From positions 496,001 to 560,000 of the forward strand of contig CM039008.1 in NCBI GenBank assembly GCA_017499595.2: 64,000 nt of DNA. Reading direction: 5' to 3'. The translations under genes and the position numbers were made by a program. Of this stretch, positions 11,949 to 32,209 are shown piece after piece. The stretch comes from Psilocybe cubensis. Lineage: Eukaryota. Positions within the stretch are counted from its first letter, which is position 1. Each line of letters begins with the position of its first letter. The notes beneath the pieces are model-generated. The model did no database searches. It saw only the letters and a program-made list of their open reading frames with translations, and was not told where the DNA came from.

Positions 11949-12219
11949 ATTGGGCTGGTTTGACGGTTGTAATGCAGAAATAGAGACAAGGGGTGGTGAA
12001 TTATGTCAAGCTACGATCCGGAGGTATGCGAAATTAGCATCTTTTCAAAATTTAAGGCGACGGACATCAGTCAAAAATATATCGTGCCATATAGAAATTA
12101 CAGGTACTGAAACAGTACCCCTATCTACTACAATATATCACATATACATTATAGTCAGATTCCATGTCCTACTTAGAGTTAAGTAAAGTTACATCTCAGA
12201 GGGGAAAAGACTGCACCTA

Positions 12220-12575
12220 TCATGATCGCGGATTATCCTGAGGGTGCATTAGAATAGGTATTCCCCGACTAATGAGGGATACCCGTAGACGGGCGATTTC
12301 GAGCTGGGTTTCAAACAGAAGATCTTCATTGGATTTATATGCTCGCATAATGTCGTCCATATAACAACGTAGCTCTGCCTGAACTTCTAGACACCTCTGT
12401 TCAGTGAGTTGAAATTGGTCAAGAGCCTTTTTAACGGCCTCTATGCCTTGATTCTAGAGGAAGGTGGATTAAAACATGAAAATAGACCTAAAACGAAGAA
12501 CTCTGCCTCTTCGGGTATGCTAGGGAGGCGGCGACTTTGAGGTTGCGAAGCGTTGTTGCTATTGGAATGGTTCAT
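12220..12575 (-). CDS. Small two-exon hypothetical coiled-coil protein (~100 aa)
   Basis: MNHSNSNNASQPQSRRLPSIPEEAEFFVL joins in frame across a GT..AG intron to EAVKKALDQFQLTEQRCLEVQAELR...LEIARLR...DNPRS*. Confidence 0.5.
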
Positions 12576-12742
12576 GATAAAGATAGGCAACAATTTGGTG
12601 TGGTGGTGGTGGCTTAAGTTCAAGACGATCAACACATTACGAACCATTAGCACTGTTGATTGCCGAAATACACTTAAATAGAATGACATAAAACCCGTAT
12701 ATGTCTACAAGTCCGTGTTCGAGATACAAGTAATGCTGCACC

Positions 12743-15102: not shown

Positions 15103-15242
15103 TGTGGGTCTTAAAGACTGTTAATCGATGTTCATCTCACTTAATTTATCATCTTAACTTGTGATAATTTATTTTTAGATACTACACAACCTATTACTAT
15201 GATAAGACGCTATGATGAACGGAAAGAGAAAACATATGGTGA

Positions 15243-15443
15243 GAAACACGCTATTTCCGGAGCGATTCTTTAGGGTAGGTTTCCCGTCCTGAAGTCACGA
15301 GTTGGTTAAAAAAACGCCCCCTTACATCAGCCGCATCACCGTCACGGTGATGCGGCTGATGTAAGGGGGCGTTTTTTTAACCAACTCGTGACTTCAGGAC
15401 GGGAAACCTACCCTAAAGAATCGCTCCGGAAATAGCGTGTTTC
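15243..15443. repeat. Perfect 201-bp palindrome (100-bp arms, 1-nt spacer at 15343), with imperfect extension to 15207-15479
   Basis: 15243-15342 is the exact reverse complement of 15344-15443, checked base by base. Outer arms ACGCTATGATGAACGGAAAGAGAAAACA and ACGCTATGACGAACGGAAAGAAAAACA are diverged. Confidence 0.97.
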
Positions 15444-15768
15444 CAACTTGATTGTTTTTCTTTCCGTTCGTCATAGCGTAGTACCCCTCCCCATAGATTT
15501 AACATACATTCTAATAAAATAGACATAGACAATACTCTAGACACTCTATAATAGTTTTCGTTCAGTTAAAATTCATCTAGTTGAAAATTTGAGACACCAG
15601 AAAAAAACACACAAAAAAAAGTAAGTACCCAAAGAAATAGAATGCAGGGTGAGACGTTGAAGTTTTGTAGTGCAAGCCCAGAAGATTTCCCCCGTTGCCC
15701 GACTCCAAGCTGAAGAAATTCTGGCGTTTCCCTTCGAAACGCAGGTCGTTCGTCAGACTCTGGAAAAC

Positions 15769-18700
15769 ATGTTGCCAGAGTCGCACCCACTCCGCGTAGG
15801 TCTTAATTGGATTGCCATTTATGGTACTAATATCAAGTTTCTGTAGAGGATGGTGGATTTCCTCTGACGATATGAGGACTTCACCTTTTTGAATTACGAT
15901 GTTTCATCATCGAGCATGCGAGCGGCCATCAAGTATAGGCAAAGCTTGGCTGCCCTTCAGAACAGCATCGTAGAGACACCCTGCGTAACCTCGGCTACAT
16001 GGGAGCAGGCGGGTAGCTTATTTGCAGCATACCGTCTACTCGATCTCGTAGCGTTGTGGCCAGCAGCCTTTGGACCATCGTTGCCGGTAACCGTGCCCCT
16101 GAATGAAATACAGGCCAGCACAGGAACTAAGGAAATATTTTCACGGTTCAAGGTATGCGATCATGAAGTCACTCAATGTTAATTCTTAATTTTCAAACAA
16201 TTATTGTAGCTTGTAGATGACTTGAAGGACTGGCCGGCAATGCTCTGCTCTGCCAGGAAGCGCATCCTCAGAGCCGACTCTAAGTCGCACAGAAACATCA
16301 ACACCCCTTCTATCAGTGACACGCCGTCATCCGCTTTCACCCAGGGCGGGCCCTCGGAATCAACGCTATTACTCTGTCTGGCGCGTAACCACTTCAAGGG
16401 TGTTGTGGGGAAAATAATCGGGAATGTGTACTGCGCCTCGCTACACTACCAAATCTTGTCAGGAATGCGCGGTATGAAGGACGATGAACACGTTCTACCA
16501 GACATTCCAACGGACACGGCTACTCTTGCAAATCTCTAGTAAGTTTTCTTTCCTCTATTCATTGATACAATCTGCTCAACATACCCTAGTGCAAGCGGCC
16601 ATCCTGATGCTGCGTTGTTCCTCTCAGAGGTCACGCCATCTCATTTAAAAATTCCTCTGCATGTCGCCCTTTTCATATCCCCCATCCTTCTTTTTGTGAA
16701 TAAATCTTGGTATTCTAAGAAATGTGACCGGGAGCAGCTGCTTAAAGTAGGTGTATCCACATCCTCCCAGTTTAACTTGGATTAACGCACTCCTTTAGGC
16801 CTCAAAAGCGCTCGGTAATTGTCGCCCCCGTGTTCTGCGTGAAGTGGAGATGGAAATTTGGAAAATCATTGCAGCGCAAAATTGCGACATCCAGTCAGCC
16901 TTATATAAACTTGTTATCTCAGACTGCTGGATGGAATGCGAGCGGGTAATTGCACAAGATCCCGCGTTTCACTTTTTCATATGTGTGTTCTACGTACTGT
17001 AACAAAATAACAATTTAAACTAATAATTGGCCAGCGTCAACGAGCAGCGCCGAGGTTACAGCAAATTCTAACCTAGCAAGGCGCAGCACTGAACCACACG
17101 GTAAGTTATAAGCAAAGTCTGCGTCAATTACATGATTTAAATCCGTTTAAAACAGCTCAACTTCAGACCGTTTCCCATCATGGTGAAAAAACCACCTGTG
17201 AAGGGTCCGACGCAGACGCGGAGGGTGACGATGATCACGAAGTGGACACGACAGAAATGGTCAGCATGGGTCAACGGGAGAACGGGGACAATACGGTCCC
17301 TACCTCAAATATACAGCCTCCGGAAGACACGTCTTCAGTGGCTGGCAAGGATGTCAGCATGGGTCAACAGGAGAACGGGGACAATACGGTCCCTACCTCA
17401 GATATACAGCCTCCGGAAGACACATCTTCGGTGGCTGGCAAGGATGTGCCCACGGACGAGCAACCTGGTTTGCCGCGGAGTGATGATATTGGATCTGGTC
17501 TACTTCAGACTGAGAATACTGGGCCCTCATCTGCAGGGGATTGTGAGATGAACGTCGATCCGGAGCAAGCTGATGTCGACCATCAAATGGAGGATGGTCC
17601 ACATACCAATGGTCCAGAAAATTTGGGAGATGGCGGGGCTGGACAAGGAGCTGAAGGGTCTTCTGACGAGGCAAATCGTATGTCGGAAGTTCACGAGGGC
17701 GAAAAGCAGGGGCAAGACGGAGAACGACCCGACGAGGAGAACCGAATGTCAGAAGATGGTGAGGAGGAAAGGCCAGACGACAGTTCGTCGGACAATGAGA
17801 CCGAGAAGCAGGGGCAAGGGGATGTTCCACCAGTCCAGGAGGACAGAATGTCGGTCGATGGAGAGGGGGTAGGCCCAGAGCAAAACAATGATTCCTCAGA
17901 CATGGAGAGGAATACATTGGAAGACAGCCAAGGCGAAAAGGAGGGGGAGAACGCACCTCCTGCTCCTCTTATTTTGAGGATTCCTCCTGTTTCCCAGATA
18001 AACAGGAGCAAAAACACCACGGCTGACTCCTCTCAGAAAGGGAAAGGGAAGGGCCGGCAGGGCCTTTCCAAGCGGCCTCCCAAACGCAAGCCGACGCAGG
18101 CTACCGACACATTTGATTCGGACGACGACCTGTGTATTGATGTCGATCTGTACGACAGCAACACCACCCTTGATGTCGTCAGCACTCCGGAGAAGGTGTA
18201 TGGCACCAAAGTTTGGTCCACCTACAACGGTCGTGGCCAACTTAAAAGTTTCTGCGTTGTTGCCCATGTAAGTCATTCTCGATATTGATTTTTTCGTCAT
18301 TTATTTATTCTCCAAACAAGAGTCAAGCCGACGTGGATCGTGTTGAAAGGGTTCTGGAATTGGTCGAGAGTGACTACGTCGATGGAGTTCCATTGCACAT
18401 AGCACGTCCCGAAGAATCATGTTTTGCGGTATTCGACCGCAGCACCACGAAATCCATGTATCTGATGGAGTCTTTCTCTGAAAGGAACGTCGTCCTTATG
18501 TCTCCTTCTCAAGAGGAGTCTATTTCAACTTGCTCCGACGAGTTCTACAGCCAGGTACGTCGCCATATGGGTGATATGACGAGCACCAGGTCAATCCAAG
18601 GTGTGTTTCCTCTTCGATGTTTTGATTTTTCTTTCTGCGTCTCATGCTAATGGCCGTAACAGATATGTCGACCATGTCGTCTAACCCCATCGAGAGGATT

Positions 18701-20332
18701 AAGCGTGGGTCCCTCTCTCAGGTCATGGAAGCAGCGAGGATGAAAGGCAAAAGAGGAAAGATCCTCAATGCCCTCGACATCCCTTTACCTCATGCAGGCG
18801 CTCACTCTTTTGACTTGAGTACTGAGGCGGCTGCTCTTCGGGCTACATCTGGTAGCTGGAAGTATAGTACCCCCGTCCCATTTGGTGATATGTCATGGGG
18901 ACTCGTAGCTACAGAGGGGGCATTTTCAGATATCCATATCGATGCCAATGGTTTCTGTTCCTTCATCCAACCTCTTCATGGACTGAAGCTGTGGATTATC
19001 ATGTATCCCAGACGGTTGGATGTTGACCTTTCTTCTGACCGCCGTGTATTTCTGGGAGACAAGCTGGATTACGGGGAAACGCACCACCAAGACTGGATTT
19101 ACGAGGCGATTGTTCTCGATAACCAGTCAGAACTGTATGTGATTTTTGAATGTCCTACCCATTTGATTATATTGACGCTACTTTGAAAAACAGCTTCATG
19201 AGACCGAATACTCTACATATGGCGTATTCTATCTCCTCAGTGGTTTGCCGTGGCGGACATTTTTACTCCTCCACTTCCTTCGAAGAAACCCTGACAGGAA
19301 TCATTCACTGTTTTACCGCTGGATACAGGGCAACGAATACGAATCATTCAACGTCCCGATTTTTCCTGCAGCAAACCATACATTGGTTCTACAAGGTTTT
19401 GGTTGAAGGTGACAGCGACCCAGAAGGTATGAGGTTTTTTACCGTTTCCTACAAGATATCTGATTCTTTTCTTCTATTTTCTCTCAGATTTTTATGAAAT
19501 GTACCATGTCCCATTCTACAGTACGCAGTCCGGATACTCGAGCTTGATAGCTCTGTGCGTGTGCATGATCTTGGCAAATGCGCTCGACTACGAGACCTAT
19601 CGAAATCCCGATCAGATGTTCTCCACCAAGACTTCGGCACAGTTAGACGCATGGATGCGGTGGGATACCAACAGCCTGAGCGACGAAGAGCGCAAGGCGT
19701 GCATCTTTGCCCGTGGCGAAGCCTTGGCTATTCTAGAGTGGCTATGTCATCGCACGAAGTCCATCCACTACATGATTGAGACGGACAAAAACAAGGATGC
19801 ACAAAATATCATGGCGACAGAAAAGTTCCATGAAATGATACTTTGCCGCTATGCCCGTATGATTCTAGCCTACGACGCAGAAGCCAAACATAACAACATT
19901 GGTGGTGCCCCTTGCTGTACCGACACCAGTTTGCTTTTTGTCCAGCTTCAGGGCGTCTGCAGCGGAGAATTGAACAAGGTTATATGTCGCAGTATCGACC
20001 AGCTTCCTCGTTCCTCGGTCCCAAAGATGCTCAAGTTACCCGTAATCACTCTCATTGACTGTGATGCCTGTGCGGATTCCTCAACGCAATTGAGTAGGTG
20101 GACCAGTGTCTGCCTTTGGATATTCACTAACCACGTCACAAACTAGGAACTCCCAAGGAGATTCTGGAACTTGGTACGAGTGTGAGGGATAAACTGTATC
20201 TGGATGGCATGAAAGTCAAGCTGGAGAGCACAAATCCGAGTACGTGTGTTCGATTATGCCTTTACGTCGCAAATGCTTATCTCTTCATCAGAATCAGAGT
20301 CTGTTCCGCCTTCTAAACGACGGCGACTTTGA
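15769..20332 (+). CDS. Large multi-exon JmjC-like Fe(II)/2-oxoglutarate dioxygenase; 5' end uncertain, possibly disrupted
   Basis: WGLVATEGAFSDIHIDANG...GLKLW (HxD plus Lys) in ORF 18644-19186, and FMRPNTLHMAY...GGHFY (distal His) in ORF 19150-19497. Upstream acidic low-complexity exon 17242-18270. Ends PPSKRRRL*. In-frame TGA at 15865 in the predicted second exon. The N-terminal exons could be a separate gene. Confidence 0.7.
17260..17447 (+). repeat. 93-bp (31-aa) coding tandem duplication
   Basis: VSMGQxENGDNTVPTSxIQPPEDTSSVAGKD twice, starting at 17260 and 17353. Confidence 0.95.
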
Positions 20333-22652
20333 TATTGTACAACACATTGACACACATCTTGATTTACATACATGCCATGTTTTATTTAGTACTGAAAGGC
20401 GTGTATGTCCTGTAACATAATGACGATTGTTTTATTATCTGTAGTTGTGTGCTGCTCGTATCGCCAGACCAATACGCAAATTCTCGCTGGGATGAAAGCT
20501 TCTGGCTTTACTGTAACTGCTGTGCGTTTGAATTTATCATCAAGGTCAATGAAATCAACTAACTTACGTTTGTTGATGCTTCTTCCACCCACTTCAAAAA
20601 ATGTGTTAGTGTCTTTGTTCTGGTGCGTATATACAGTAAAGCTCTTCCGAAGCCCTCCTTGGATTGTACTACGGATTGGTTGAATACTAACCCATGTGAA
20701 ATTTGTTTGTATTAACGGAGACATAATCAGATAACATTTATAGACCCACTGCACGTTACTGAACATTACATTATCAGTTTTTTTTTCGTATCTTCGCTTT
20801 TGTATGAGTCGTTGTTTCAACATGGGAAAGGGCAAGGGCAAGAGAACTCAGGAAATCTGTGTGCGTTGTCCTCGATGCAACAAGCCATTCGCTAAGCATG
20901 CAGATGTCCAAAATCACATCAATCAACCAAAATCGGCATGTCGTTTTCAATATGAGAACGTTATGCATTTTCAGTCCAATCGTTCAAGCTCTACATCTAG
21001 ATCAGCAACCCCCGTATCTCGAGACCCTTCTCCCGAAATTGGTAATTTTATGGAAGTGGACTATATCGACAATTTTCTTGGCGCGTCATCAGAGATGGAA
21101 GATGACCCACCCCCCAAGGCATCAAAATACAACTATCCGTACGTGAAGGAGGATTATAACGGGGCTGGAAGAGCATTTGGAACAGGCCTTACATTCATGG
21201 ATCAGCTCAAACAGGATCAATTCGAACCCCAGCGGGCGGAAAATTTGTACTATCCTTTTGCCTCGAAAGATGAATGGGAGCTCTCCCTGTTCCTACTTCG
21301 CTCTGACATGAGCGTAGGAATGCTGAATGATTTTTTGAAACTTGAACTGGTAATTGAGCGTACATTCCCATCATTATTTATTTCAGCTGAGTCGATCCCG
21401 TATAGATAAAAAAACTCAACTTGTCCTACAAGTCGGCAAAAGATCTACGCAACCGGGCAGAGATCCTTCCCTCTGGTCCGCAGTGGAAGAGTCAAACGAT
21501 CATACCAGAAATACCAAGCAAAAATCAGCTAACGCTTTTTTACCGCGATGGATTGGAATGTATCAAGGCGCTTCTCATCAGTCCCTTGCTCCAAGATAGC
21601 ATGCACTTTAGCCCATTCAAGCTCTTCGACAAGTGCAACGAGATGATGCGGGTATACACTGAGTGGTTTAGCGGTGACATTGCGCATTTTATGCAGGTTA
21701 GTAGCAATGCCTTTGTCCAAGTTTGACGACAGTATAACAAGGTTCCCAAGGACCAGCTCCCAAAAGGAGCAACACTTGTACCTCCTATTATTTCCACGGA
21801 TAAAACCAACATTTCCAACATGACCGGAGGCCGTGTCGCCTACCCTGGCCTTATCAGCATTGCCAACATAATGATGAACGTTAGAAACAAATCGTCAAAT
21901 CATTTATTCCTTCTTTTTGTTCTTCTTCCCATACCAAAGTTTCTTCATCGCTCCAAAGCTGTGAATGGGATGATGGCAGCACGGCTATATCACCAGTGCA
22001 TGGACATTGCTCTAGAATCGGTCAAACAAACTGCGAGGGTGGGAACCACCATGGCAGATGCATTGGGGAATAATCGTTTCTGCTTTACACCGCTTGCTGC
22101 CCTTATCGTTGATACTCCAGAATCTGCTCTGGCGGCTTGCGTCGCAGGATCCACATCCTCTGTGACGTTGGCACAATACGAGACGTTTGGGGATTCCTTT
22201 CGCCACCCTTCCCGAACTGCAGATCATACAATCAACACCATCATGGCCATCAACAATGTTAAGCCCCCTAATCATCTCGAACCATATCTAAAAGAAAGCA
22301 AAAAGCACCGTCTCAATGGGGTTCACCTACCGTTTTGGAGAGATTGGCCCTTGTCTGATCCTTCTGCATTCCTTACACCTGAACCCCTTCATCACTGGCA
22401 CAAGATGTTCTGGGATCATGATGCAAAATGGTGCATTGCTGCAGTCGGAGGTTCCGAATTGGATTTTCGATTTTCGATTTTACAGCACCGCACTGGTTTC
22501 CGACACTTCAAGGAAGGGATTTCTTCCTTGAAACAAGTGACCGGTAGGGAACATCGGGACGTTCAGCGATACATTGTTGCTCTCATTGCAGACACAGTCA
22601 GTACACCCTTTATCTTAGCCATCCGGTCTCTGATGGACTTTCGGTATCTCGC

Positions 22653-23102
22653 TGTCAGGGCAACACTATAATCAGTGTGACAAGGCCACCAACAAAGATT
22701 AAGCAAGAGAGAGAAAGAGAGAGCAGAGGGAGAGTAAGAGAGCAAAGAGAGAATAAGAGAGTGAGAGAGATTCAATGGTTCTAAGAGATCACACCAATGA
22801 TAGTGGATATCCTAAGAGATTGAAGCTGAAGCTACAGCTACCTACAAGTCCAGTATTTATACTCTACAGCTATTCTAGAATATTCCCTACATTACATCAT
22901 AAAGGAAGGTTAAAGAATAAAAGTGACATCATATAGAAAAAGGATGAGTAAGACTAGGAATCATATAGAATTTACTAGAAAGAAGTGGAGCAAGAAGGCT
23001 GTGATGAAAGAAATAAACTATCTAATCAGATAATTGATAAGATAATGAAAGAATAAGATAATTCTGTGAAGATAAAGAGGGGAAACTGGAGAAACCCTGA
23101 CA
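22653..23102 (-). repeat. 3' LTR
   Basis: Identical by eye to 28615-29064. Confidence 0.97.
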
Positions 23103-26100
23103 TCACCCCCTCTCTAAGGCACATTTTCCACAATGTGCACATGGATGGGTTAGTTTAGAGGGTTTAAGAAGAGGAGGAGGTTCAGTAAAGTTAATAATAG
23201 GAGTGAAAGAAAGTCTATCAAAGGTCACAGCAGAAATCCTTCTAGGTGCTGAAGGATGTTTGGCATGGAAGTCCTTGATAGCCTTAGAAGCATTTTTCAA
23301 ATGCTCTGCAGGCTCCCAAGTGCATTCTTCATTAGGATAGTTCTTCCACTTGACCAAATATTGAAGTTTGTTTCTAAAAAGTCTGCTGTCCTTGATAAAT
23401 TCAACTTCCCACTCAGGATTTTCTCCTTGAATGACAGGAGGTGGTCTAGAAGGAGGCTTTCTTCCTACAATATCTGGGTGATAAGGTAGAAGTTTAACCA
23501 CATTGAACACTGGATGGATTTTCATGGTAGATGGCAGCTTAAGCTCATAGGCATTAGGGCTAATAACTTTGGTAATTTTGTAAGGCCCATATCTTTTATC
23601 ATCCAATTTCTTGGAGGGCCTATCAGTTTTGAGGTCCTTGCCATCTAACCATACCAAATCCCCAACTTTGTACTGAGTTGGAGTACCTCTGTGTCTATTA
23701 TAGAATTTAGCCATATCATCAGCAGCTTTTCTAAGTGCAGACTCTGCTTCTTTCCTGGCTTCTTCCATATTTTTCACAAAGGTATCCACAGTGTCCATTT
23801 TACTATCTCTAAGGGGTTCAGTGCCCATTCTGGGATGTCTGCCATTATTGAGCATGAATGGTGTCTGCCTGGTTGAAGCCTGAACTCTATTGTTATAAGA
23901 GAATTCAGCTAGAGCTAACCATTCAACCCAATCATCTTGTCTATGGTTTATAAAGAGTCTAAGATACTGCTCAATTTCTTGGTTAACTCTTTCAGTCTGA
24001 CCATCAGTTTGGGGATGGTAGGCTGTAGATGAGGCTGTCTGGATACCAAGTATTGAGTTGAGTTCTTTCATAAACCTTGAGACAAACTGTGGACCTCTAT
24101 CACACAGAATTTTAATGGGTAAGCCATGGTGTTTCCAGACATAATCTCTGTATAGTCTGGCTGTCCCTTCAGAAGTGACTTCATCTGTAGTAGGGATAAT
24201 GTGGATCATTTTACTAAGTCTATCCACAACCACCATAATGGCATTATACCCTTGACATTCTGGTAACCCCATAATAAAGTCCACAGAGATGCATTGCCAG
24301 ACATCAGAGGGAATCTCAGTAGGAATTAAAAGGCCAAGAGGTTTGGCTGGAAAGGTTTTGGTTCTGTTGCATCTATCACAACCTCTGGTATAGGCTGCAA
24401 TAAAATGTGACATTCCTGGCCACCAATAATTCCTAGAGACTAGCTCAATTGTCTTCCATTTCCCTGGATGTCCAGCAATGAAGGCATCATGGTGCAGTTC
24501 CACAATCTTTCTTCTAAGATCTTTGTCTTTGGGAACATACACCTTCCCCCTGTAGAGAATAAGGCCTTGTTCTTCTGACCATTCCTGTCCTTCAATCTTC
24601 TTGGTAGAAGATTTCTTGAGCTCCTGAACTGCCTTGACCACCTTTTCATCCATCTCCTTAGCTTCTCTAATCTTCTTAAGAAGATCATTTTCTGCACCAG
24701 TAATGGTAGCATGACCCTGCTTGAGAGCCTGGATTTTAAAGTAGGAAGGTTTGAGGAGAACTACATTTTGGTTATCATTTTCTCCCTTTTTATGATCTGG
24801 TCTCCTAGACAAAGCATCTGGCTTAAGAGATCTTTTACCAGGCCTATGATGAAGAGTAAAATCAAATCTGGACAGGAAGAGTGACCATCTGGCTTGCCTT
24901 CTGCTGAGCTTTTGGGCAACCATAAAGTACTCTAAGTTTTTGTGGTCTGTCCAAATCTCAAAGGAATGTTGGGTTCCTTCAAGATAATGTCTCCATTCAT
25001 CTAGTGCTCTGATAATAGCCAGCATCTCTTTGTCATGGATCTCATAATTCCTTTCTACTTCAGATAGACTCTTAGACATAAAGGCTACAGGATGCCATTT
25101 CCCATCTGATCCTTCCTGAGATAAAACAGCCCCAGTAGCATAATCTGAACTGTCTGCTTCAACTTTATATGGCTTGTTATCATCAGGGAAAATCAAGACA
25201 GGTGAAGAAGTGACTTTCTTCTTTAACTGGTCAAAGGCTTCCTGCTGTCTAAGACTCCATCTCCAGACTGTTCCTTTCTTTGTCAATTCATGAAGGGGCT
25301 TAGCAATGTCTGCAAAATCCTCTATGAACCTTCTATAAAAATTAACAAATCCCAAGAATGATTGGACATCCTTGACATTTTCAGGTTCAGGCCATTTAGA
25401 AACTCCCTCTACCTTGACAGGATCCATCTCAATCCTGCCTTGTGAAATGATTAGTCCAAGATATTCAATCTTTTCCTTTTCAAATTCACATTTCTCTGCT
25501 TTAAGGTAGAGTTTGTTCTGTTCTAGGATTTGCAGAACTTGCTTGACTACCTCTCTATGATGATCAAGAGTCTCAGTGAAAATTAAAATGTCATCCATGT
25601 AGACAATGACAACATTTCCATCAATGAGCTCAATAAAGATATCATTCATCATAGTTTGGAAGGTAGCAGGACTATTGGTTAAACCAAAGAACATGACCAA
25701 TGGTTCAAACAGCCCTCTATTGGTTCTAAAGGCTGCTTTCCATTCATCTCCCTTTTTGATTCTGACATTGTTAAATCCCCACCTAACATCAAGTTTGGTG
25801 AAGTATTTGGCTTTGCTGAGTTTGGTGATGATGTCAGAAATCAATGGAAGGGGGTAGGAGTTCTTGATGGTCATTTCATTCAGTTTCCTATAGTCCTGGA
25901 CAAGCCTAAGAGATCCATCCTTCTTCTTGACAAAGAATACAGGGGAGGCCATAGGTGACTTGGAGGGTCTAATCCTGCCAGACTTCAGATTTTCCTCTAA
26001 AAAGGCATCAAGTTCCTTTTGTTCATTGGGAGAAAGAGGATAAATCTTGGATCTGTAAGGTTCAGAACCAGGTTTCAGCTCAATAGCATGATCCCAAGGC

Positions 26101-26984
26101 TTTCTGTCTGGTAGCCTATCAAAAGATTCCTTTGAAAAAACACCTTTAAACTGATGATAGTGCTTAGGAACAGTTTCTTCAAAGGTTTTCTTAGGGGAAT
26201 CAGCTTGCTGATGAGACTCTTCTGCTAATCTTTGAGACATAGTAGAAGTAGCATTAATAGACTGCTTCTGAGGATGAAGGTATGAGATAAAAATTCTATC
26301 CTCAGGCTCAATCTCAGAATCAGAAGAATCTTCAATAGAATCATCTTCTTCTTCATCAAATTGAGGGAGTTTCCTCCTTTTGACTGCAGCTATTCTCTGC
26401 CTCTTTCTTCTGGCTCTTTTGGCTTCCATTTGGCAGTCAGAGGGACATCTAATAAACTGGACATCCCCTGTCTTCCAATCAACATCTGGATTATGGTGCC
26501 AAAGCCAAGTATGTCCAATGATAGCAGATTTGTCTCCCAAGTCACAAACAGCAAAGGTGGCCCTTTCTGTATGGTTCTTGTGTACCATAATTAAGTCTAC
26601 TTCCTCATGGATAGAGCCACTCTTGTTGAGAGTACCATCAACATTATAGACTGGAATGGCTCTAGGAAGTTTCCTTGTGTTGAGATTATGATACTTCACA
26701 AAACCAGAATGCAGAAAGAGGCCAGTAGCTCCAGAATCAAGTAAAGCATCAACAGATAACCTTTTCTCTGTGTCCATTGTCTTTAAGATGACAGACAAAT
26801 GGGTAGAGGTTTTAGGATTATGGTTGAGGATGTAGATCTTTTCAGGGAAGGTAGAAAGAGAGGAAGAAGAAGACATGATTTCTGCACCAGAATCTGAAGA
26901 CTGAGGATCAAGTCTGTCAATTTCATTTTCTAGTACATTAAATCTATTCCATTGGGACATGTCTTTCACCAATGGTGCTTCTAA
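23103..26984 (-). CDS. pol: Pol polyprotein: protease, RT, RNase H, integrase, chromodomain (reached by a -1 frameshift from gag)
   Basis: LLDSGA protease; YMDD RT; ADSSD...NYEIHDKEMLAI RNase H; HH-CC zinc finger, SVDFI, CDRG and GQTER integrase with GPY motif; chromodomain WEVEFI...YLVKWKNY...TWEP. Stop codon abuts the 3' LTR. Confidence 0.97.
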   Translation of the reverse strand, partial: LEAPLVKDMSQWNRFNVLENEIDRLDPQSSDSGAEIMSSSSSLSTFPEKIYILNHNPKTSTHLSVILKTMDTEKRLSVDALLDSGATGLFLHSGFVKYHNLNTRKLPRAIPVYNVDGTLNKSGSIHEEVDLIMVHKNHTERATFAVCDLGDKSAIIGHTWLWHHNPDVDWKTGDVQFIRCPSDCQMEAKRARRKRQRIAAVKRRKLPQFDEEEDDSIEDSSDSEIEPEDRIFISYLHPQKQSINATSTMSQRLAEESHQQADSPKKTFEETVPKHYHQFKGVFSKESFDRLPDRKPWDHAIELKPGSEPYRSKIYPLSPNEQKELDAFLEENLKSGRIRPSKSPMASPVFFVKKKDGSLRLVQDYRKLNEMTIKNSYPLPLISDIITKLSKAKYFTKLDVRWGFNNVRIKKGDEWKAAFRTNRGLFEPLVMFFGLTNSPATFQTMMNDIFIELIDGNVVIVYMDDILIFTETLDHHREVVKQVLQILEQNKLYLKAEKCEFEKEKIEYLGLIISQGRIEMDPVKVEGVSKWPEPENVKDVQSFLGFVNFYRRFIEDFADIAKPLHELTKKGTVWRWSLRQQEAFDQLKKKVTSSPVLIFPDDNKPYKVEADSSDYATGAVLSQEGSDGKWHPVAFMSKSLSEVERNYEIHDKEMLAIIRALDEWRHYLEGTQHSFEIWTDHKNLEYFMVAQKLSRRQARWSLFLSRFDFTLHHRPGKRSLKPDALSRRPDHKKGENDNQNVVLLKPSYFKIQALKQGHATITGAENDLLKKIREAKEMDEKVVKAVQELKKSSTKKIEGQEWSEEQGLILYRGKVYVPKDKDLRRKIVELHHDAFIAGHPGKWKTIELVSRNYWWPGMSHFIAAYTRGCDRCNRTKTFPAKPLGLLIPTEIPSDVWQCISVDFIMGLPECQGYNAIMVVVDRLSKMIHIIPTTDEVTSEGTARLYRDYVWKHHGLPIKILCDRGPQFVSRFMKELNSILGIQTASSTAYHPQTDGQTERVNQEIEQYLRLFINHRQDDWVEWLALAEFSYNNRVQASTRQTPFMLNNGRHPRMGTEPLRDSKMDTVDTFVKNMEEARKEAESALRKAADDMAKFYNRHRGTPTQYKVGDLVWLDGKDLKTDRPSKKLDDKRYGPYKITKVISPNAYELKLPSTMKIHPVFNVVKLLPYHPDIVGRKPPSRPPPVIQGENPEWEVEFIKDSRLFRNKLQYLVKWKNYPNEECTWEPAEHLKNASKAIKDFHAKHPSAPRRISAVTFDRLSFTPIINFTEPPPLLKPSKLTHPCAHCGKCALERG

Positions 26985-28108
26985 AAATTTTTCTTTTCCT
27001 CATCTTTCTGCTCCTTGCCTTCCAAGATTAATTTCCCAAAGTAGTCAGCCAGTTCTTCATGGGTCATAGCATTGATGTTAACTGATGACCTGCAGTTTAC
27101 AGCCTTATGACCAGGCTTTCTGCACTTGAAGCAAACAATTGGCCTAACTGACTTCCATCCAGAGTCAACCTCCATGGGAACTACATCTGGTTGCTTTGCC
27201 TGAGCACCAAAGGTCCTTGAGCTGCTGTTGGAAAAGACTGGAGGATTTGGAGTAGGCTTAGGAACAGCCTTGGGAGTTGGGGCTTTAAGGAAGGGAGAAG
27301 AAGAGGAGGAGGAAAGAGACTTGGTAAAGGCCTCACTCTGTCTCCACTGCCTATCTAGCCTAGTACTCCATTTAATCCATCCATCCAAGGTTTTGGGCAT
27401 GTCAGGAACATAGTAGACTGCATTCCTAAGATTTTCATTAAGCCCAGCCTTGAATTGGTCTACCAAAGCAGCATCATTATACCCAGTATCTGAGATCAGA
27501 GCCCTGAAGCTAGCAACATACTCATCAGCAGTCTGTCTGCCTTGCTTGAGCATGTGCATTTTATGCTTAGCTGTGTTGGAGGGGTCTGGATCTGCAAACA
27601 CTTCCCTAAATTCATAAACAAAGTCAGCCCAAAGACCTTCTTGGGACTGAGCATTGTCTATTACTTTAGTCTTCTCATATGCCCACTTCCCAGCAGTACC
27701 TCCTTTCATATGAGATAGAGCACAAATAACTTTCTGAAAGTCATCTGTAATCCCTTTCCCATAGAAATATAATTTAAGCTGACTGAGGAAGTTTTCTGCC
27801 TTCTCCATAGAACCATCAAATGGATCTGGAGGTGAGACTTTAATGGCAGAGTGTGAACAGGAAGGGGCAACATGAGGGGTAGGGAAAGAGTGAATATCTA
27901 GAGCAGCAGGTGGTGGTGGTGGTGGTGGTGGTGGTGGTGGTGGTGGTGATGGTGACTGACTGACTGGTTGCTGAGGGTGTGGTGGAGTGGATAATGACTG
28001 CTGCTGCTGTCTAAGAAAATTTAACTCTTGGGTAAGGAGCTGGACCTGATGCATGAGCTCTTCCACAGAAGGAGTGGTGGGAGGCAATTGGGAGGGGTCC
28101 ATGTCCAT
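26981..28108 (-). CDS. gag: Gag protein
   Basis: 375 aa with a poly-Pro tract, PDPFDG, LKQG...ADEYVASF capsid motif, VPMEVD and CFKCRKPGHKAVNC zinc knuckle. Confidence 0.95.
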   Translation of the reverse strand: MDMDPSQLPPTTPSVEELMHQVQLLTQELNFLRQQQQSLSTPPHPQQPVSQSPSPPPPPPPPPPPPPAALDIHSFPTPHVAPSCSHSAIKVSPPDPFDGSMEKAENFLSQLKLYFYGKGITDDFQKVICALSHMKGGTAGKWAYEKTKVIDNAQSQEGLWADFVYEFREVFADPDPSNTAKHKMHMLKQGRQTADEYVASFRALISDTGYNDAALVDQFKAGLNENLRNAVYYVPDMPKTLDGWIKWSTRLDRQWRQSEAFTKSLSSSSSSPFLKAPTPKAVPKPTPNPPVFSNSSSRTFGAQAKQPDVVPMEVDSGWKSVRPIVCFKCRKPGHKAVNCRSSVNINAMTHEELADYFGKLILEGKEQKDEEKKNF

Positions 28109-28601
28109 GGGTAGGGGTAGGTAGGCTCTCTGATGTGTGTGTGGGAGAAGCTATCTACTGAAAGTGCCCTTGAAACTATACTAAGTATTCTAAAAAAAAA
28201 TATCTATCTACTGGATACCCAGTTGTCACACCACTCAGGGCTCTAAACCTAGGATCACAGGGTTACTGGATATTTCCTAGACCACCAAAAACAGAACACT
28301 AGTAGGACTGTGTCTGCCCCAACAGTTGGTATCCCTATCTACTAAGTTCACACACAGCACACAACAGAGAGTAGGAAAGATGATGAGCCAAAGGTCTTGA
28401 GGAAAGGTCTTGAGGAAAGGTTTTGAGGAGGATGTTGAAGATTGGTGGAGATGTAGAGATTGGTAAGAAGATTGGTGAAGAGGTTGATGAAGAGGTTGGT
28501 GGATTGGAAGTGGAGGAAGAAGGTTGAGGTGATGGTGTTGAAGAGGTTGAAGAGGTGAAGAGTTTGGTGTTGAAAGAGAGATGGTGGAGTTGTCTTGAGA
28601 G

Positions 28602-28612
28602 AGCTTCAATCT
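28602..28612 (-). promoter_or_regulatory. Primer-binding site complementary to the element's own predicted transcript 5' end
   Basis: Minus-strand AGATTGAAGCT lies 2 nt after the 5' LTR. It is complementary to minus-strand AGCTTCAATCT at 28789-28779, which is 26 nt downstream of TATAAATA (28823-28816). Confidence 0.75.
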
Positions 28613-28614
28613 TC

Positions 28615-29064
28615 TGTCAGGGCAACACTATAATCAGTGTGACAAGGCCACCAACAAAGATTAAGCAAGAGAGAGAAAGAGAGAGCAGAGGGAGAGTAAG
28701 AGAGCAAAGAGAGAATAAGAGAGTGAGAGAGATTCAATGGTTCTAAGAGATCACACCAATGATAGTGGATATCCTAAGAGATTGAAGCTGAAGCTACAGC
28801 TACCTACAAGTCCAGTATTTATACTCTACAGCTATTCTAGAATATTCCCTACATTACATCATAAAGGAAGGTTAAAGAATAAAAGTGACATCATATAGAA
28901 AAAGGATGAGTAAGACTAGGAATCATATAGAATTTACTAGAAAGAAGTGGAGCAAGAAGGCTGTGATGAAAGAAATAAACTATCTAATCAGATAATTGAT
29001 AAGATAATGAAAGAATAAGATAATTCTGTGAAGATAAAGAGGGGAAACTGGAGAAACCCTGACA
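28615..29064 (-). repeat. 5' LTR
   Basis: 450 bp; TATA box at 28816-28823 on the minus strand. Confidence 0.97.
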
Positions 29065-30572
29065 CTCGCACAATCTCAAACAATCTCCGAGGCAATGTGT
29101 CTCAGAATTGAGCAGGCACTGCAAGATTTCCATGCCAATAAACAAGCCATCCTTGACGCGGGAGCACGTCGAGGTAAAAAAAACAACCCAATCGATAATT
29201 TCTATATTCCAAAACTCGAGTTTTTGCAAAGTGTAGTACACGCAATTAGACTAAATGGATGTGCAATCCAATGGTCTGCAGACACGACAGAGCATGCACA
29301 TATCGAGGTGGTCAAAGCCCCTTCCAGTTCCAGCAATAATCAAAGATACGAGCCTCAAGTTTGTCGATACCTTGATCGTCGTGACAAATTGCGCAATTTC
29401 GATTTGTTTACAGCTATACGAGAAATGAGGATTGATTTTCGGGCTATACACTCTGCAACAATTACGGATGAGGAGGAGCAGGAGGAGGGGGATGAGGGGG
29501 AGGAAAACGGCGAGGTTGTGATGGACACAACGTCAGAACTTCTTTCAACAATCATGCCGATGACAACCTTTCAATCAGCAAAGTCCAATCGCATTGTGGA
29601 TTACTTCTACAAAGCTAGTCTCTATGAGCGTGGCGTATTGGAAGGCCCAGTCCCCTACAGAACATTTTCTTGCAGCAAAAACGTTGTTGCCCATTTATCT
29701 AGGGATGCTAGTTCCAAAAGATTGCATATCGACGAGGTTGCGAGCATTTTTAAAATTCCCGACCTACGACCAGCAATTGCCGATTATGTGTCACTCATCA
29801 ATAAGGAATCAAATCCGAGACAGACCAATTCTCGAGGTTATCACATCAAGGGGATAACTGGCAGGCGTGTTTCTCCTCCCGGTTGTCCGTTGCCGTATTC
29901 AAAACTTGAGGTATGGCATAAGGTCCGTATACAGTCGACTGCGTACCAATACCCTCATGAGATCCTGGAGGCAGTCACACTTAATGCATATCCGCCATCT
30001 AACAAACATCCTTTTGGATACTTCGATTCAGCAATCATAAACGTGGATGAATCTGAGGAGTGGCCTCGCAGCGGGCTTCAAGGTAGTACTTCTTTGTGAC
30101 TTTTTTCCGAACCCCGTTGACCAGCCAATATTGTAGGCCATTCTGTCGTCGACATTCGTATTATTTTTCGCATTGTCGGAGAGACACCCAGTACTGTGTC
30201 TCCCGATATTACTGGAAGATTTCTCGCATACGTCCAACGTTTTGAGGTTTTAAATCAGCCACAGTCTCTAGGTTCTGCGATCCGTGGACCTTACCCAGAG
30301 CCAATAACCGGCATGTATAAATTAAAACAAAGTCAACGTACAGATAACACCATTATGGGTGGAATTTTACCATTGAATCAAATACGCTCCCTGGTTGATC
30401 TGGTCCCTCAGATGGGCGAGAAGGCAAGGCGAAGCCTTACTACACATAACAGTCATTCCACTAGCACCGAGTTCCGATTAAACAAATATTTTGACAAAGA
30501 ACTCTATTTGGCCCTGTCATCATAACATATCCACCTCAGGAAACCCACAAAGTTTTCAATCCCTAATGCACA

Positions 30573-31077
30573 TTGCCACTCAAATTATCACCCAACACGC
30601 CGGCCTCGTTGTACACAAAGACGACTCGGATCAATATCAACAGCCGCTTCTCACCAGTCCCGCTTTCTCACACTGTATCATCGTCACCTACTGCATATCC
30701 CTCCATCCATCTCATCTCTGCAGAATCAAGTCGTTCTCGCTCATCTTCCGCTCACCACCGCCCAAACTCCAAAGGATTCTTCCCAGAGTGCCTCTTCCTC
30801 TAAACAAAAATTCGCCTCCAGTCTTGTTGGTCCGTCCTGTCCTCAATTAGCGCCCATCTTGCCGGAGATACTCACTTTATTTTTTCAATTCCATTGCAGA
30901 TTAAGCTGTCAGCACCTTATCTGAGATCTGGCGCCCTCAAGACATTCCCTCCCTATTTCTACCCACTGAAGTCCTTTGAGGATTGAGGACATCTGGAAAC
31001 ATACTGCAGACAGCACTATGTTATCTCGAAGCCATTCGTCCCAAGGTTCCCAAAATTTGCAAGAGGAAAGCATTGGC
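30573..31077 (+). pseudogene. Degraded, internally deleted duplicate of the adjacent cyclin gene
   Basis: 30673-30952 matches 31109-31387, including the intron. 30969-31077 matches 31617-31726. TAA replaces CAA just after the splice acceptor. Confidence 0.8.
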
Positions 31078-32209
31078 CTCTCTCCCACAATCCATACCTG
31101 CCATGCCTCTGTATCATTACCTACTGAATACCCCTCCATCCGTCTCATTTCTGCAGAATCAAGTTGTTCTCACTCATCTATTCCACCCACCACTGCGCAA
31201 ATTCCAAAGGATTCTTCCCAGAGCGCCTCTTCTTCTAAACAAAAATTTTTTTCAAGGCTTGCCGGTCCGTCCTGTCCTCAATTAGCGCCCACCTTGCCGG
31301 AGATACTCACTTTATTTTTTAAATTCCATTGCAGATCAAGCTGTCAGCACCTTGTCCGAGATCTGGCACCCTCAGGATATTCCTTCCGTGTTCCTACCCC
31401 CCGCCAAAGTAGGGGGTAGCTCTTTTCCTCCTACTCATTCCCGTCCAACTTCCAAGCAGATCTCTTCCGATTTGCAATCCATAGCGTCTCATACACATCC
31501 AATACATCCACACAACAGTCATCCCTCCGTATCCGGCCATAACCCTTCCCCGACCCTCTTGCTTGCCTCGGGCACCAAATCCGATCAGATATTACCCCTC
31601 AAGTCTTTTGTTTATAAAGTCCTTCGCCACTCAAGGACATCTAAAAACGTACTGCAGATAGCACTATGTTATCTAGAATCCATTCGTCCCAAGGTCCCAC
31701 AGATTTTGCAAGAGGAAAACATCGGCATTCGCTCTTATGCTCAGCCCAAAAGCAGTATTCAGAAAGCTACCCCAGAAGAGCTGGCGATGGATGCTGAGCT
31801 TACTGCTCTTGAGAACTCCGGCAAGATCAACATCATCAATAATTTCATTGACAATTCTATGCAAACATTCCGTGTTGCCGATTCTGGTTCACAAGATCTG
31901 GCTGAATCGTGCATCTATCCACAAGACTCTCTGTCCAGCGTAGATGTGCAGGTCTCAACGGCTCCTCTTTCCACCACCCTTTCTTTGCCATCTCCCCTCC
32001 TGTGTCCCCGTAGAGCCTTTCTGGCATCCCTCATCCTGGCCTCCAAATTTTCACAAGAAAAGTGTTATTCTAACCGTGCTTGGGCAAGGTTATCTGGTCT
32101 CCCACCTCGTGAAATTGGTCGCTGCGAACGTGCCCTCGCACAAGCCTTGCAATGGCGACTCTGGGTCGGCAAATGCGCCTTTGGTGAGAGTGCTGCAACT
32201 GCCACATAG
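31018..32209 (+). CDS. Pcl/Clg1-type (PHO80-like) cyclin; start uncertain
   Basis: PLKSFVYKVLRHSRTSKNVLQIALCYLESIR and LPSPLLCPRRAFLASLILASKFSQEKCYSNRAWARLSGLPPREIGRCERALAQALQWRLWV form the cyclin box. Intron 31265-31334 joins SRLA|DQAVSTLSEIW. Confidence 0.85.

Follow-up and report, generated by a model that had tools for sequence, protein, structure and literature searches.

A young, intact retrotransposon of Psilocybe cubensis that contains no CpG and may be invisible to CpG methylation defence

Young, active transposable elements (TEs) are usually rich in CpG, and CpG is lost as methylated, dead copies age, according to a section of PMC7431005. The locus studied here, at positions 22653-29064 of a 64-kb stretch of Psilocybe cubensis DNA (the window), raises the question of how an element can be young, intact and mobile with no CpG at all. 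The original prediction claimed that the LTRs, leader, gag and pol hold no CG, where roughly 250 would be expected. Counting confirmed this. For these 6412 bp the base composition (A.298, T.291, G.221, C.189) predicts 268.9 CG, and 0 were present. The number was 0 in each part (expected: LTR 13.4, leader 21.0, gag 59.0, pol 157.4) and in each of the 1-kb bins from 23001 to 28001 (39-52 expected). The flanks and the target site duplication (TSD) do carry CpG, as had also been claimed. The left flank had 1084 observed versus 1226 expected (o/e 0.88) and the right flank 1696 versus 1856 (o/e 0.91). The CGs closest to the element, at 22650 and 29067, both lie within the TSD copies CTCGC. The CpG-free tract is 6417 bp long and its borders are exactly the LTR termini; the second-longest CpG-free run of the window is 230 bp. 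The element keeps 215 GC dinucleotides, so the absence of CpG is not a general poverty of C or G.

An artefact of assembly or read conversion, or a chance effect, could in principle give such a count, and we give it practically no weight. C and G are kept outside CpG, the CpG-free tract stops where the LTRs stop, and independent raw reads agree with the sequence: in the Illumina run X19, which covers the element, 87368 of 121513 mapped reads are at least 99% alike. With a mean of about 240-269, a Poisson count of 0 has negligible probability.

Judged by its sequence, the element is an autonomous Tf1/sushi-like chromovirus, a Ty3/gypsy LTR retrotransposon of the Metaviridae. Its own features lie on the minus strand, an orientation absent from the original prediction. 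The 3' LTR (22653-23102) and the 5' LTR (28615-29064) are each 450 bp long, contain 0 CG, begin with TG and end with CA (TGTCAG...CTGACA), and are identical at 450 of 450 positions. The pol frame (23103-26999) is open from stop to stop over 1298 codons, with the first ATG at 26960. It carries, in this order, an aspartic protease (DSG motif), RT, RNase H, integrase (zinc-binding domain, core and SH3) and a chromodomain. The Pfam matches were RVT_1 (1e-37, aa 344-505), RT_RNaseH (5e-39, aa 593-699), Integrase_H2C2 (7e-20, aa 812-869), rve (3.5e-10, aa 889-983), SH3_Tf2-1 (4e-18) and Chromo PF00385 (2.5e-15, aa 1184-1233). The protease was recognized by the DSG motif at aa 75-77 and a weak Pfam match below the cut-off (gag-asp_proteas, E 1.4e-4). 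The integrase follows RT and carries the chromodomain at its C-terminus, which is the order of Ty3/gypsy chromoviruses. A polypurine tract (PPT), read directly as AGAGAGGGGGTGA in the sense direction (23103-23115), adjoins the 3' LTR and overlaps the pol stop codon.

The gag frame (26981-28108) encodes 375 aa with a Ty3-type capsid and one CCHC zinc knuckle (Ty3_capsid 3e-10, Retrotrans_gag 4e-9, zf-CCHC 3e-4). It is in frame 2 and pol in frame 1; pol is open from element nt 2066 and overlaps the end of gag at 2084. The slippery heptamer A_AAT_TTT (26984-26990) stands just ahead of the gag TAG, with pol in the -1 frame. A hairpin at 26949-26975, 8 nt downstream of the gag stop codon, is a candidate frameshift stimulator (104-nt fold, -28.5 kcal/mol, z -3.2 versus 200 shuffles). 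No TGG was found next to the LTR as in a tRNA-type primer-binding site (PBS). Instead, a putative PBS AGATTGAAGCT (28602-28612; element 453-463) begins 2 nt after the 5' LTR. It is the exact 11-nt complement of LTR 276-286, a match with a chance of about 0.002 by our own estimate (20 x 440 x 4^-11). The transcript would begin with the putative self-primer AGCTTCAATCT (28779-28789, LTR 276-286), which lies 34 nt downstream of where a TATAAA box starts (LTR 242-247, window 28818-28823). This is a putative Tf1-type self-priming arrangement, in which both the transcript start and the primer cleavage are putative.

The element has inserted into a Plavaka transposase gene and disrupted it. The upstream half of the frame (21727-22652, plus strand; Pfam Plavaka 1e-53) has normal CpG content, and the downstream half (29070-30099, plus strand; DUF6830 9e-46) continues the same frame. 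The two TSD copies, each 5 bp long and containing a CG, lie at 22648-22652 and 29065-29069. When the element was excised in silico, an open Plavaka frame of 651 codons was restored. The empty site was present in raw reads of another strain, with the joint 22647 to 29065, where 5 letters fit either side. In run X19, where the flank has a depth of about 547, 176+176 reads carried this joint; in run X13 one contig did. The depth of X19 on the element was about 1465, which is about 2.7 times that of the flank. Loose ends at the LTR termini in X19 (464-564 reads each) had an agreement of 0.34-0.36, and such low agreement indicates further insertion sites. The empty site and the depth ratio together point to a low-copy, recently mobile family. 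No further copies or fragments were found in the window by blastn and tblastn. Run X14, guessed to be RNA and possibly low-coverage DNA, gave 6 short contigs on the element and 0 on SPT5 or the other flanks.

The element is thus young and mobile, with identical LTRs, open gag and pol, slippery site, hairpin, PBS, PPT and an empty site in another strain. The claims that an intact LTR retrotransposon had recently inserted in a basidiomycete, and that this copy had not decayed in place, therefore held. RIP-like hypermutation signs were absent: there were 0 stops in 375 + 1298 codons, C was retained outside CpG and GC content was 41% (about 46% in the flanks). Since the LTRs are identical and no stop codon is present, the CpG-free state was inherited rather than acquired in place.

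The avoidance extends to codon choice and to codon junctions. All 91 Arg codons of gag and pol are AGR (AGA 58, AGG 33) and none is CGN. No NCG codon was found, which is the codon usage that the original prediction had expected. Codon junctions of the form C-G numbered 0 versus 21.1 + 67.8 (about 89) expected. Host ORFs of the same window use CGN: a 936-aa ORF has 39 CGN and 13 AGR, and the SPT5 exon 11 CGN and 7 AGR. The product of the 936-aa ORF is 99% identical to a Psilocybe cubensis protein, which places the host in this species or very close to it; a search with the SPT5 exon gave no scoring hit. A CGN codon that is deaminated comes to encode Cys, Trp, His or Gln or becomes a stop, but never turns into AGR, so the AGR-only Arg usage goes beyond deamination alone.

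This codon pattern bears on a reading by mutation pressure only, in which 5mC deamination or RIP-/MIP-like premeiotic hypermutation removed CpG and purifying selection kept the survivors. There would be no escape from silencing; being CpG-free would protect against further mutation, not against silencing. Passages of PMC4352252 and PMC3318451 document CpG-biased C-to-T mutation in basidiomycete TEs. The lower GC content of the element is about what 269 CpG-to-TpG/CpA changes would produce. Positions 25766-25767 read CA here and TG in a diverged relative from run X13, which looks like one ancestral CpG that was deaminated on opposite strands in the two lineages. However, with 915 TG+CA sites, a mutation-only model is expected to reach 3 or fewer CpGs only if the rate of CpG decay exceeds that of the back-transition by a factor of at least about 150. 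It also has no way to produce the AGR-only Arg codons by deamination. Nor is there a clear TG/CA excess over the flanks. The mean rho(TG,CA) was 1.18 in the element and 1.12 in the flanks, and the regression of the relatives predicted 1.30 at zero CpG, which gives no clear sign of a fresh deamination footprint. Furthermore, the part of Horns et al. (PMC3318451) on Agaricomycotina describes no strong RIP-like pattern in three species.

More distant relatives show what ordinary decay looks like. DNA was available for 114 related elements, at 27-60% aa identity. A metagenome scan gave at least 597 stretches, with relatives at 38-60% aa among the matches listed. A search of genome contigs with an alignment gave 29 mis-binned loci (35-59% aa), and the same contigs searched with a single protein query gave no match. 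Viral contigs gave 5 related loci (27-50% aa). None of the 114 listed elements was CpG-free, and their longest CpG-free run was 1335 bp. Among those of at least 4 kb (n=85), an ORF of at least 700 aa was present in 0 of 23 with CpG o/e below 0.6 and in 32 of 34 with CpG o/e of at least 0.8. These 85 listed loci follow the usual rule of CpG loss with age, and the less CpG they hold, the larger is their TG/CA excess (r -0.74), a trend that would fit mutation pressure. An ORF of at least 700 aa was found in 49 of the 114 listed loci, and in all 49 the ORF had a CpG o/e of 0.557-1.3. The CpG-poor relatives are all ORF-dead and the element is intact, so it is not a product of ordinary decay. Moreover, the most depleted dead relatives listed get down only to o/e 0.195. 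Lineage selection would still be needed to sort the survivors of mutation, which makes this reading overlap with the one we prefer. As an explanation by itself we consider mutation pressure unlikely.

Closer relatives were compared for the same trait. The diverged relative in run X13 (about 3000x depth) had 39 listed differences within about 400 bp, and none of them makes a CpG (40 of the 268 read-mapping variants were listed). At these 39 places 12 of 117 possible changes would make one (P about 0.016); over the element sequence 13.7% of random substitutions would. Six listed loose-end strings of this relative (151 nt) also contained 0 CG. Relatives at 60-85% aa were compared as proteins only. 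In the close-paralog clusters of relatives at 70-85% aa, among them at least 6 full-length copies of Psilocybe cf. subviscida, 26 Arg exchanges were one-step only from AGR (24 of them R/K) and 4 were reachable only from CGN, versus 2 AGR-only and 5 CGN-only exchanges in a CGN-rich control pair (Fisher p 0.005). A tree-based Arg-exchange test gave weak evidence, since only one of its three indices separated the clade from the controls. The ratio (R/Q+R/H)/(R/K) was 0.19-0.23 in the 60-85% clade versus 0.53-0.65 in CGN-rich controls. CGN-only neighbours over T, I and M neighbours (2.5-3.0 versus 2.9-3.5) and RK/DE (0.96-1.19 versus 0.85-1.07) barely differed. An A/T-rich codon bias could also account for a preference for AGR. 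The few direct data (39 differences and 151 nt) and this indirect, protein-level codon evidence suggest that the lack of CpG is common to the closer relatives. Together with the dead CpG-poor relatives, the lack of CpG in the listed parts of the X13 relative and the AGR spectra lend modest support to the claim that the lineage purged its CpGs while remaining functional.

The distribution of relatives also bears on a foreign origin, by which the CpG-free state would come from another host, whose CpG regime is harsher, through recent horizontal transfer and would tell nothing about the defences of P. cubensis. The copies are few and near-identical, and sequence words of the element stretch occur in sequencing runs under several organism labels, but the labels are codes that might stand for strains or closely related species. 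The dinucleotide signature and GC content of the element are unlike those of the flanks (AG 1.39 and CT 1.37 versus 0.96; GT 0.71 versus 0.91), although TE composition is commonly unlike host genes. Horizontal TE transfer in fungi is reported in a section of bioRxiv 10.1101/2025.06.16.659975. Against this, the closest named relatives (84% aa) are at least 6 full-length copies in the congener Psilocybe cf. subviscida, which fits vertical descent inside the genus, and no donor candidate was found among the relatives searched. We regard a foreign origin as improbable.

Selection at the level of RNA or cDNA would be another way to remove CpG uniformly. A ZAP-like host factor might sense CpG in the transcript or in unintegrated cDNA. 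The genomic RNA represents every base of the element, and uniform avoidance in LTRs, leader and ORFs is compatible with such a sensor. Fungi are not known to have an RNA restriction factor that senses CpG. Vertebrate viruses suppress CpG to evade ZAP, as a section of PMC11670115 states. However, TpA, which is typically suppressed in RNA viruses too, is alike in the element and its flanks (0.69 versus 0.72), and the 49 listed intact relatives keep CpG o/e at 0.56-1.3. Such a mechanism appears very unlikely here.

We consider lineage-level selection under CpG-specific methylation and deamination to be the probable cause, with moderate confidence. TE cytosine methylation in the hosts would be essentially CpG-specific (DNMT1-RFD and DNMT5 in Agaricomycotina). 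Methylation would silence the copies that carry CpG, and deamination of 5mC would later destroy them. Sub-lineages poorer in CpG would remain transcribable and lose fewer copies to deamination, and the family would ratchet down to zero CpG. CpG would be removed wherever synonymous or neutral alternatives exist, and the state would be inherited via the RNA template. CpG methylation and CpG-targeted mutation would then find nothing to act on in an element without CpG. We infer both the link of CpG absence to methylation and the escape from silencing. CpG methylation in Basidiomycota is described as confined to TE-rich regions and strongly CpG-specific in a part of PMC13297926. In these fungi, DNA is not known to be methylated at any site other than CG. 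The host DNA of the window, including the Plavaka transposon, has a near-normal CpG o/e (0.88-0.91) and thus gives no sign in the window of strong CpG methylation or deamination. In the literature searched, nothing paired Psilocybe cubensis with cytosine methylation, and a term search of its draft-genome paper (PMC8220353) found no mention of methylation, repeats or transposons. More tentatively, lineage selection may have gone as far as a stealth coat: a fully CpG-free lineage that is neither methylated nor deaminated, still transposes and has kept the trait across at least 15-30% protein divergence in Psilocybe. We hold this stronger form to be possible rather than probable. Low copy number is unlike the naive expectation for an element unseen by any defence, so controls other than CpG methylation probably act on the family.

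The element resembles known systems only in part. Like Tf1/Tf2 of Schizosaccharomyces pombe and Tj1 of S. japonicus, it has a PR-RT-RH-IN pol with a C-terminal chromodomain and a Tf2-type SH3. Named homologues at 55-57% aa, annotated as 'retrotransposable element Tf2 ... type 1-like', occur in Lyophyllum shimeji. Tf1 has a single ORF, whereas the Psilocybe element has gag and pol in two frames linked by a -1 slippery site. It also differs from Tf1/Tj1 in having no CpG and an agaricomycete host. As in Tf1/Tj1, its putative PBS is complementary to an LTR 11-mer just downstream of the TATA box (a section of PMC4600332). A shortage of CpG is shared with CG-deficient basidiomycete TEs (Clutterbuck 2017, Fungal Genet Biol 104:16, as cited in PMC11451569 and PMC10787394). 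Passages of Amselem et al. 2015 (PMC4352252) and Horns et al. 2012 (PMC3318451) give as the accepted cause that repeats are methylated at CpG and then deaminated; for Pucciniomycotina, the same passages give TpCpG hypermutation. The depletion described there is partial: copies differ from one another by C-to-T changes, the mark of decay. In the Psilocybe element, by contrast, it is absolute (0/269), and the element is intact, polymorphic, low-copy and recoded to AGR only.

Avoidance of a defence-targeted motif has a parallel in TE lineages of Microbotryum lychnidis-dioicae, where work cited in PMC3318451 describes a paucity of TpCpG at places where C-to-T would be nonsynonymous. That paucity is of a trinucleotide, partial and position-specific under hypermutation, whereas here a dinucleotide is absent everywhere, including non-coding parts. 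Vertebrate viruses suppress CpG strongly, but not to zero over 6 kb. CpG-suppressed vertebrate RNA viruses and retroviruses (a section of PMC11670115) are an analogy only: the parasite likewise recodes without CpG and keeps its proteins, but the sensor evaded is ZAP, a vertebrate RNA-binding protein. No description of a wholly CpG-free autonomous TE was found in the literature searched, although Clutterbuck 2017 may note CG-poor elements that keep their ORFs. We rate the element as an extreme form among known CpG-depleted basidiomycete TEs.

The Psilocybe element breaks the rule that relates CpG to age: it is young, intact and mobile with zero CpG. Dating by CpG decay would misjudge the family as ancient, as would masks that target RIP-like or CpG-poor sequence. 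If the proposed cause is right, a genome defence that reads a single dinucleotide can be fully evaded by synonymous recoding, and selection on a TE lineage can be strong enough to keep the count at zero where about 270 sites would be expected. If the stealth reading is true as well, this would be the first autonomous transposon from nature to lack CpG altogether, and it could serve directly as a control for what CpG methylation contributes to fungal TE silencing. CpG-free and CpG-bearing families in one nucleus form a natural experiment in a cultivable fungus, and their comparison would show the role of other layers (H3K9me, RNAi) in limiting the family. As read from its sequence, the element may be a natural case of a transposon invisible to CpG methylation defence.

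The LTR retrotransposon at 22653-29064 (6412 bp) contains no CG dinucleotide, whereas 268.9 are expected from its base composition, and every 1-kb bin holds 0 CG versus 39-52 expected. The observed/expected ratio (o/e) of CpG in the window outside the element was 0.88 on the left (1084 observed, 1226 expected) and 0.91 on the right (1696/1856). The CGs closest to the element, at 22650 and 29067, each fall within one copy of the target-site duplication (TSD, CTCGC, 5 bp). Since both copies carry a CG, the limits of the CpG-free tract (6417 bp) coincide exactly with the LTR termini; no other stretch of the 64-kb window goes without CpG for more than 230 bp. GC occurs 215 times in the element, and the remaining dinucleotides also occur. 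These counts bear out the original prediction that the element lacks CpG while the flanks and the TSD have it. An artefact of assembly or conversion as the cause of the CpG absence is refuted and has practically no probability left: the element is covered by independent raw Illumina reads from another strain (X19), where 87368 of 121513 aligned reads were at least 99% alike.

The element is encoded on the minus strand. Its LTRs (22653-23102 and 28615-29064, 450 bp each) are identical at 450/450 positions and end in TG...CA; a long CT-rich tract is found in the U5-like part (LTR positions ~335-400). The gag ORF (28108..26981, minus strand) encodes a 375-aa protein that has a Ty3-type capsid plus a single CCHC knuckle. 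The pol ORF (26960..23103, minus strand, open from 26999; 1285-1298 codons) encodes RT, RNase H, an integrase zinc-binding domain, the integrase core, a Tf2-type SH3 domain and a chromodomain; the only signs of the protease are a DSG motif and Pfam matches below threshold. The pol frame is -1 relative to gag, with the heptamer A_AAT_TTT directly before the gag TAG and a hairpin (z -3.2 for the 104-nt fold) starting 8 nt past the stop codon. No tRNA-type TGG was found at the priming site. An 11-mer 2 nt past the 5' LTR is perfectly complementary to LTR positions 276-286, a segment that starts 34 nt downstream of the start of the TATAAA box, and this arrangement matches the self-priming layout of Tf1 and Tj1 as described in the accessible part of PMC4600332. 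A polypurine tract adjoins the 3' LTR on the same strand. Its LTRs, gag and pol domains, frameshift, self-priming layout and polypurine tract place the element among the Tf1/sushi-like chromoviruses (Ty3/gypsy superfamily), as an autonomous member.

X19 shares its coded species label with a run that contains 0.89 of the words of the stretch. In X19, a joint from 22647 to 29065, at which 5 letters fit either side, is spanned by 176+176 reads, about the number expected of a fully empty site at such depth. The identical joint (22647/29065) was found in one contig of a second run, X13. The assembled strain carries this insertion, which X19 lacks completely or almost completely. The empty site in raw reads and the identical LTRs support the recent insertion that had been proposed, and the proposal of identical LTRs with open ORFs (gag, and pol as a 1298-codon frame) also held. 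Mean X19 depth was ~547 on the flanks and ~1465 in the element interior (2.7x). At the LTR termini, reads continue into many different sequences (464-564 per terminus, agreement 0.34-0.36), which indicates further copies elsewhere; no further copies or fragments were found within the 64-kb window. The element family has few copies, and these hardly differ from one another. Among X19 variants in window 12000-31999 (at least 10% of reads differing), there were 143 transitions versus 17 transversions, and reference G>A (62) and C>T (35) exceeded A>G (30) and T>C (16). Because the reference element has no CpG, any such C-to-T type differences within it, whose positions are mostly unlisted, are non-CpG changes in other copies.

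The insertion splits a Plavaka (KDZ-type) transposase gene on the plus strand into two halves (21727-22652, Plavaka match 1e-53; 29070-30099, DUF6830 match 9e-46), both with near-normal CpG and CGN Arg codons. Taking out the element and one TSD copy gives a 651-codon open Plavaka frame, which has single-copy depth in X19 and is intact in the empty allele. The retrotransposon has knocked out a possibly live Plavaka DNA transposon. Just downstream of the frame are direct repeats of ~290 bp (30673-30964 and 31109-31399, 87% alike), which may be terminal or subterminal repeats of this transposon. Elsewhere in the window, a 936-codon ORF (56933-59743, minus strand) matches a 1390-aa Psilocybe cubensis protein with 99% identity over the full ORF length, so the host is P. 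cubensis or a very near relative. The same ORF has a weak zf-4CXXC_R1 match (E 4e-4, below cut-off), a zinc finger of the CDCA7 type, which is tied to CpG methylation maintenance in other eukaryotes. A 277-bp stretch at 15207-15479, ~700 bp from SPT5 exons, is self-reverse-complementary at 94.6%. In X19 it shows a 6-bp deletion variant (15336), read-start pile-ups (15294 and 15327) and small joints (15231-15347), and this palindromic spot is probably unstable.

The CpG avoidance of the element reaches the codon level. All Arg codons (91/91) are AGA or AGG (AGR), and TCG, CCG, ACG and GCG are never used, as expected by the original prediction. In host ORFs of the window, the CGN/AGR counts were 39/13 for the 936-aa ORF, 11/7 for an SPT5 exon, and 14/4 and 15/9 for the Plavaka halves. 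Deamination of CGN gives Cys, Trp, stop, His or Gln codons but never AGR, so the Arg codons were not tidied by deamination alone. No C|G codon junction exists versus 21.1 + 67.8 expected, and C-ending codons make up ~1/4 of the codons preceding non-G-starting codons. Non-coding DNA also has 0 CpG (13.4 expected in the LTR and 21.0 in the leader). Compared with the flanks, the element has a slight surplus of TG and CA (mean rho 1.18 versus 1.12) and equal TpA (0.69 versus 0.72). AG/CT are enriched in the element (rho 1.39/1.37 versus 0.96 in flanks), in part because of the AGR codons, and GT/AC are scarce (0.71/0.79).

At the DNA level, the comparison set comprised at least 114 relatives with 27-60% aa identity to the pol of the element, taken from IMG/VR, metagenome contigs and mis-binned contigs of MAGs. 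Among the 114 listed, CpG o/e ranged from 0.195 to 1.45; none was CpG-free, and the longest CpG-free run was 1335 bp. Of the 85 loci of at least 4 kb, those with o/e below 0.6 had no ORF of at least 700 aa (0/23; median longest ORF ~260-280 aa), versus 32/34 for those with o/e of at least 0.8. The TG/CA excess climbs with falling CpG (r -0.74), and in all long-ORF loci (49/49) the ORF o/e was at least 0.557. Among the listed relatives, then, CpG shortage is normally a sign of dead, deaminated copies. With zero CpG and a 1298-codon open pol, the element is a complete outlier. A restriction that senses CpG on RNA or cDNA could also remove the dinucleotide, but intact related elements are CpG-normal, and to our knowledge no such factor is known in fungi; we consider this very improbable. 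Among the related loci, eukaryotic chromovirus pol is also encoded by 29 contigs (L083-L111) that are assigned to genomes or MAGs of bacteria or archaea, e.g. Pyrinomonadaceae, Alphaproteobacteria, Saccharibacteria and one Levilactobacillus isolate assembly; this is DNA of fungi or other eukaryotes that was mis-binned or came in as contamination.

Closer relatives, at 60-85% aa identity to pol, were compared as proteins only. X13 contains a diverged relative of the element over window 23900-25850 at a word depth of ~3000x, and of 9000x at the LTR edge, together with P. cubensis-like pieces at depth 2-4. A highly abundant sister-family copy thus seems to belong to a different organism in this data set. 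The 39 listed differences of this relative created 0 CpG, while 12 of the 117 possible substitutions there would (P about 0.016), and there is no CG in the 151 nt of the 6 loose-end strings listed for its contigs. The doublet 25766-25767, CA in the element and TG in the X13 relative, appears to derive from an ancestral CpG that each lineage lost on its own. We also used Arg exchanges: R/K is one base change from AGR and two from CGN, whereas R/H, R/Q, R/C, R/L and R/P are one change from CGN only. Near-identical paralogue clusters (92-99.9% identity) among relatives at 70-85% aa identity, including at least six full-length copies on separate contigs of Psilocybe cf. subviscida, gave 26 AGR-only-type exchanges (24 of them R/K) versus 4 CGN-only-type. 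The sole comparably close CGN-rich control pair gave 2 versus 5 (Fisher p 0.005 against the clusters). On trees, (R/Q+R/H)/(R/K) was 0.19-0.23 in the 60-85% clade versus 0.53-0.65 in controls at any branch-length cut-off; two other tree indices hardly separated them. In our view this moderately supports an old origin, within the clade, of AGR-only coding and, by implication, of CpG avoidance. Horizontal transfer from a foreign source would be compatible with the unusual composition of the element, but a multi-copy relative at 84% aa identity exists in a congener, and we regard a foreign origin as unlikely.

The element has 915 TG+CA sites, and a mutation-only equilibrium with at most 3 CpGs needs CpG decay at least ~150x the back-transition rate; ~13.7% of random substitutions in its sequence would make a CpG. 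New CpGs must therefore be removed very efficiently by something. Pure mutation pressure with purifying selection is a rather doubtful alternative, which overlaps with lineage selection because survivors must still be sorted by selection. Lineage selection is the best-supported reading. According to the accessible part of PMC13297926, 5mC in Basidiomycota, deposited by DNMT1-RFD and DNMT5, lies mostly in TE-rich regions and has a strong CpG specificity; C-to-T mutation of TEs biased to CpG is documented in the portions available of PMC4352252 and PMC3318451. Our literature search for P. cubensis cytosine methylation found nothing. Under lineage selection, CpG-bearing copies would be methylated, silenced and eroded, and sub-lineages with fewer CpGs would leave more descendants, down to zero CpG. 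At zero, the element would no longer be a substrate for CpG methylation or CpG-targeted mutation, and may escape silencing. Further controls still seem to act on the family, to judge by its low copy number (2.7x).

CpG-deficient TEs in basidiomycetes were reportedly treated by Clutterbuck in 2017. They are established in the accessible parts of PMC4352252 and PMC3318451, and the latter also raises the idea of a TE lineage thinning the target motif of a defence, for TpCpG in Microbotryum. Our literature search, covering any organism, brought up no report of an intact, mobile element entirely devoid of CpG, and we rate this element as an extreme new version of the known CpG-deficient basidiomycete TEs. 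The usual rule, as given in the available text of PMC7431005, is that TEs are rich in CpG when young and poor in it when old; this element inverts it.
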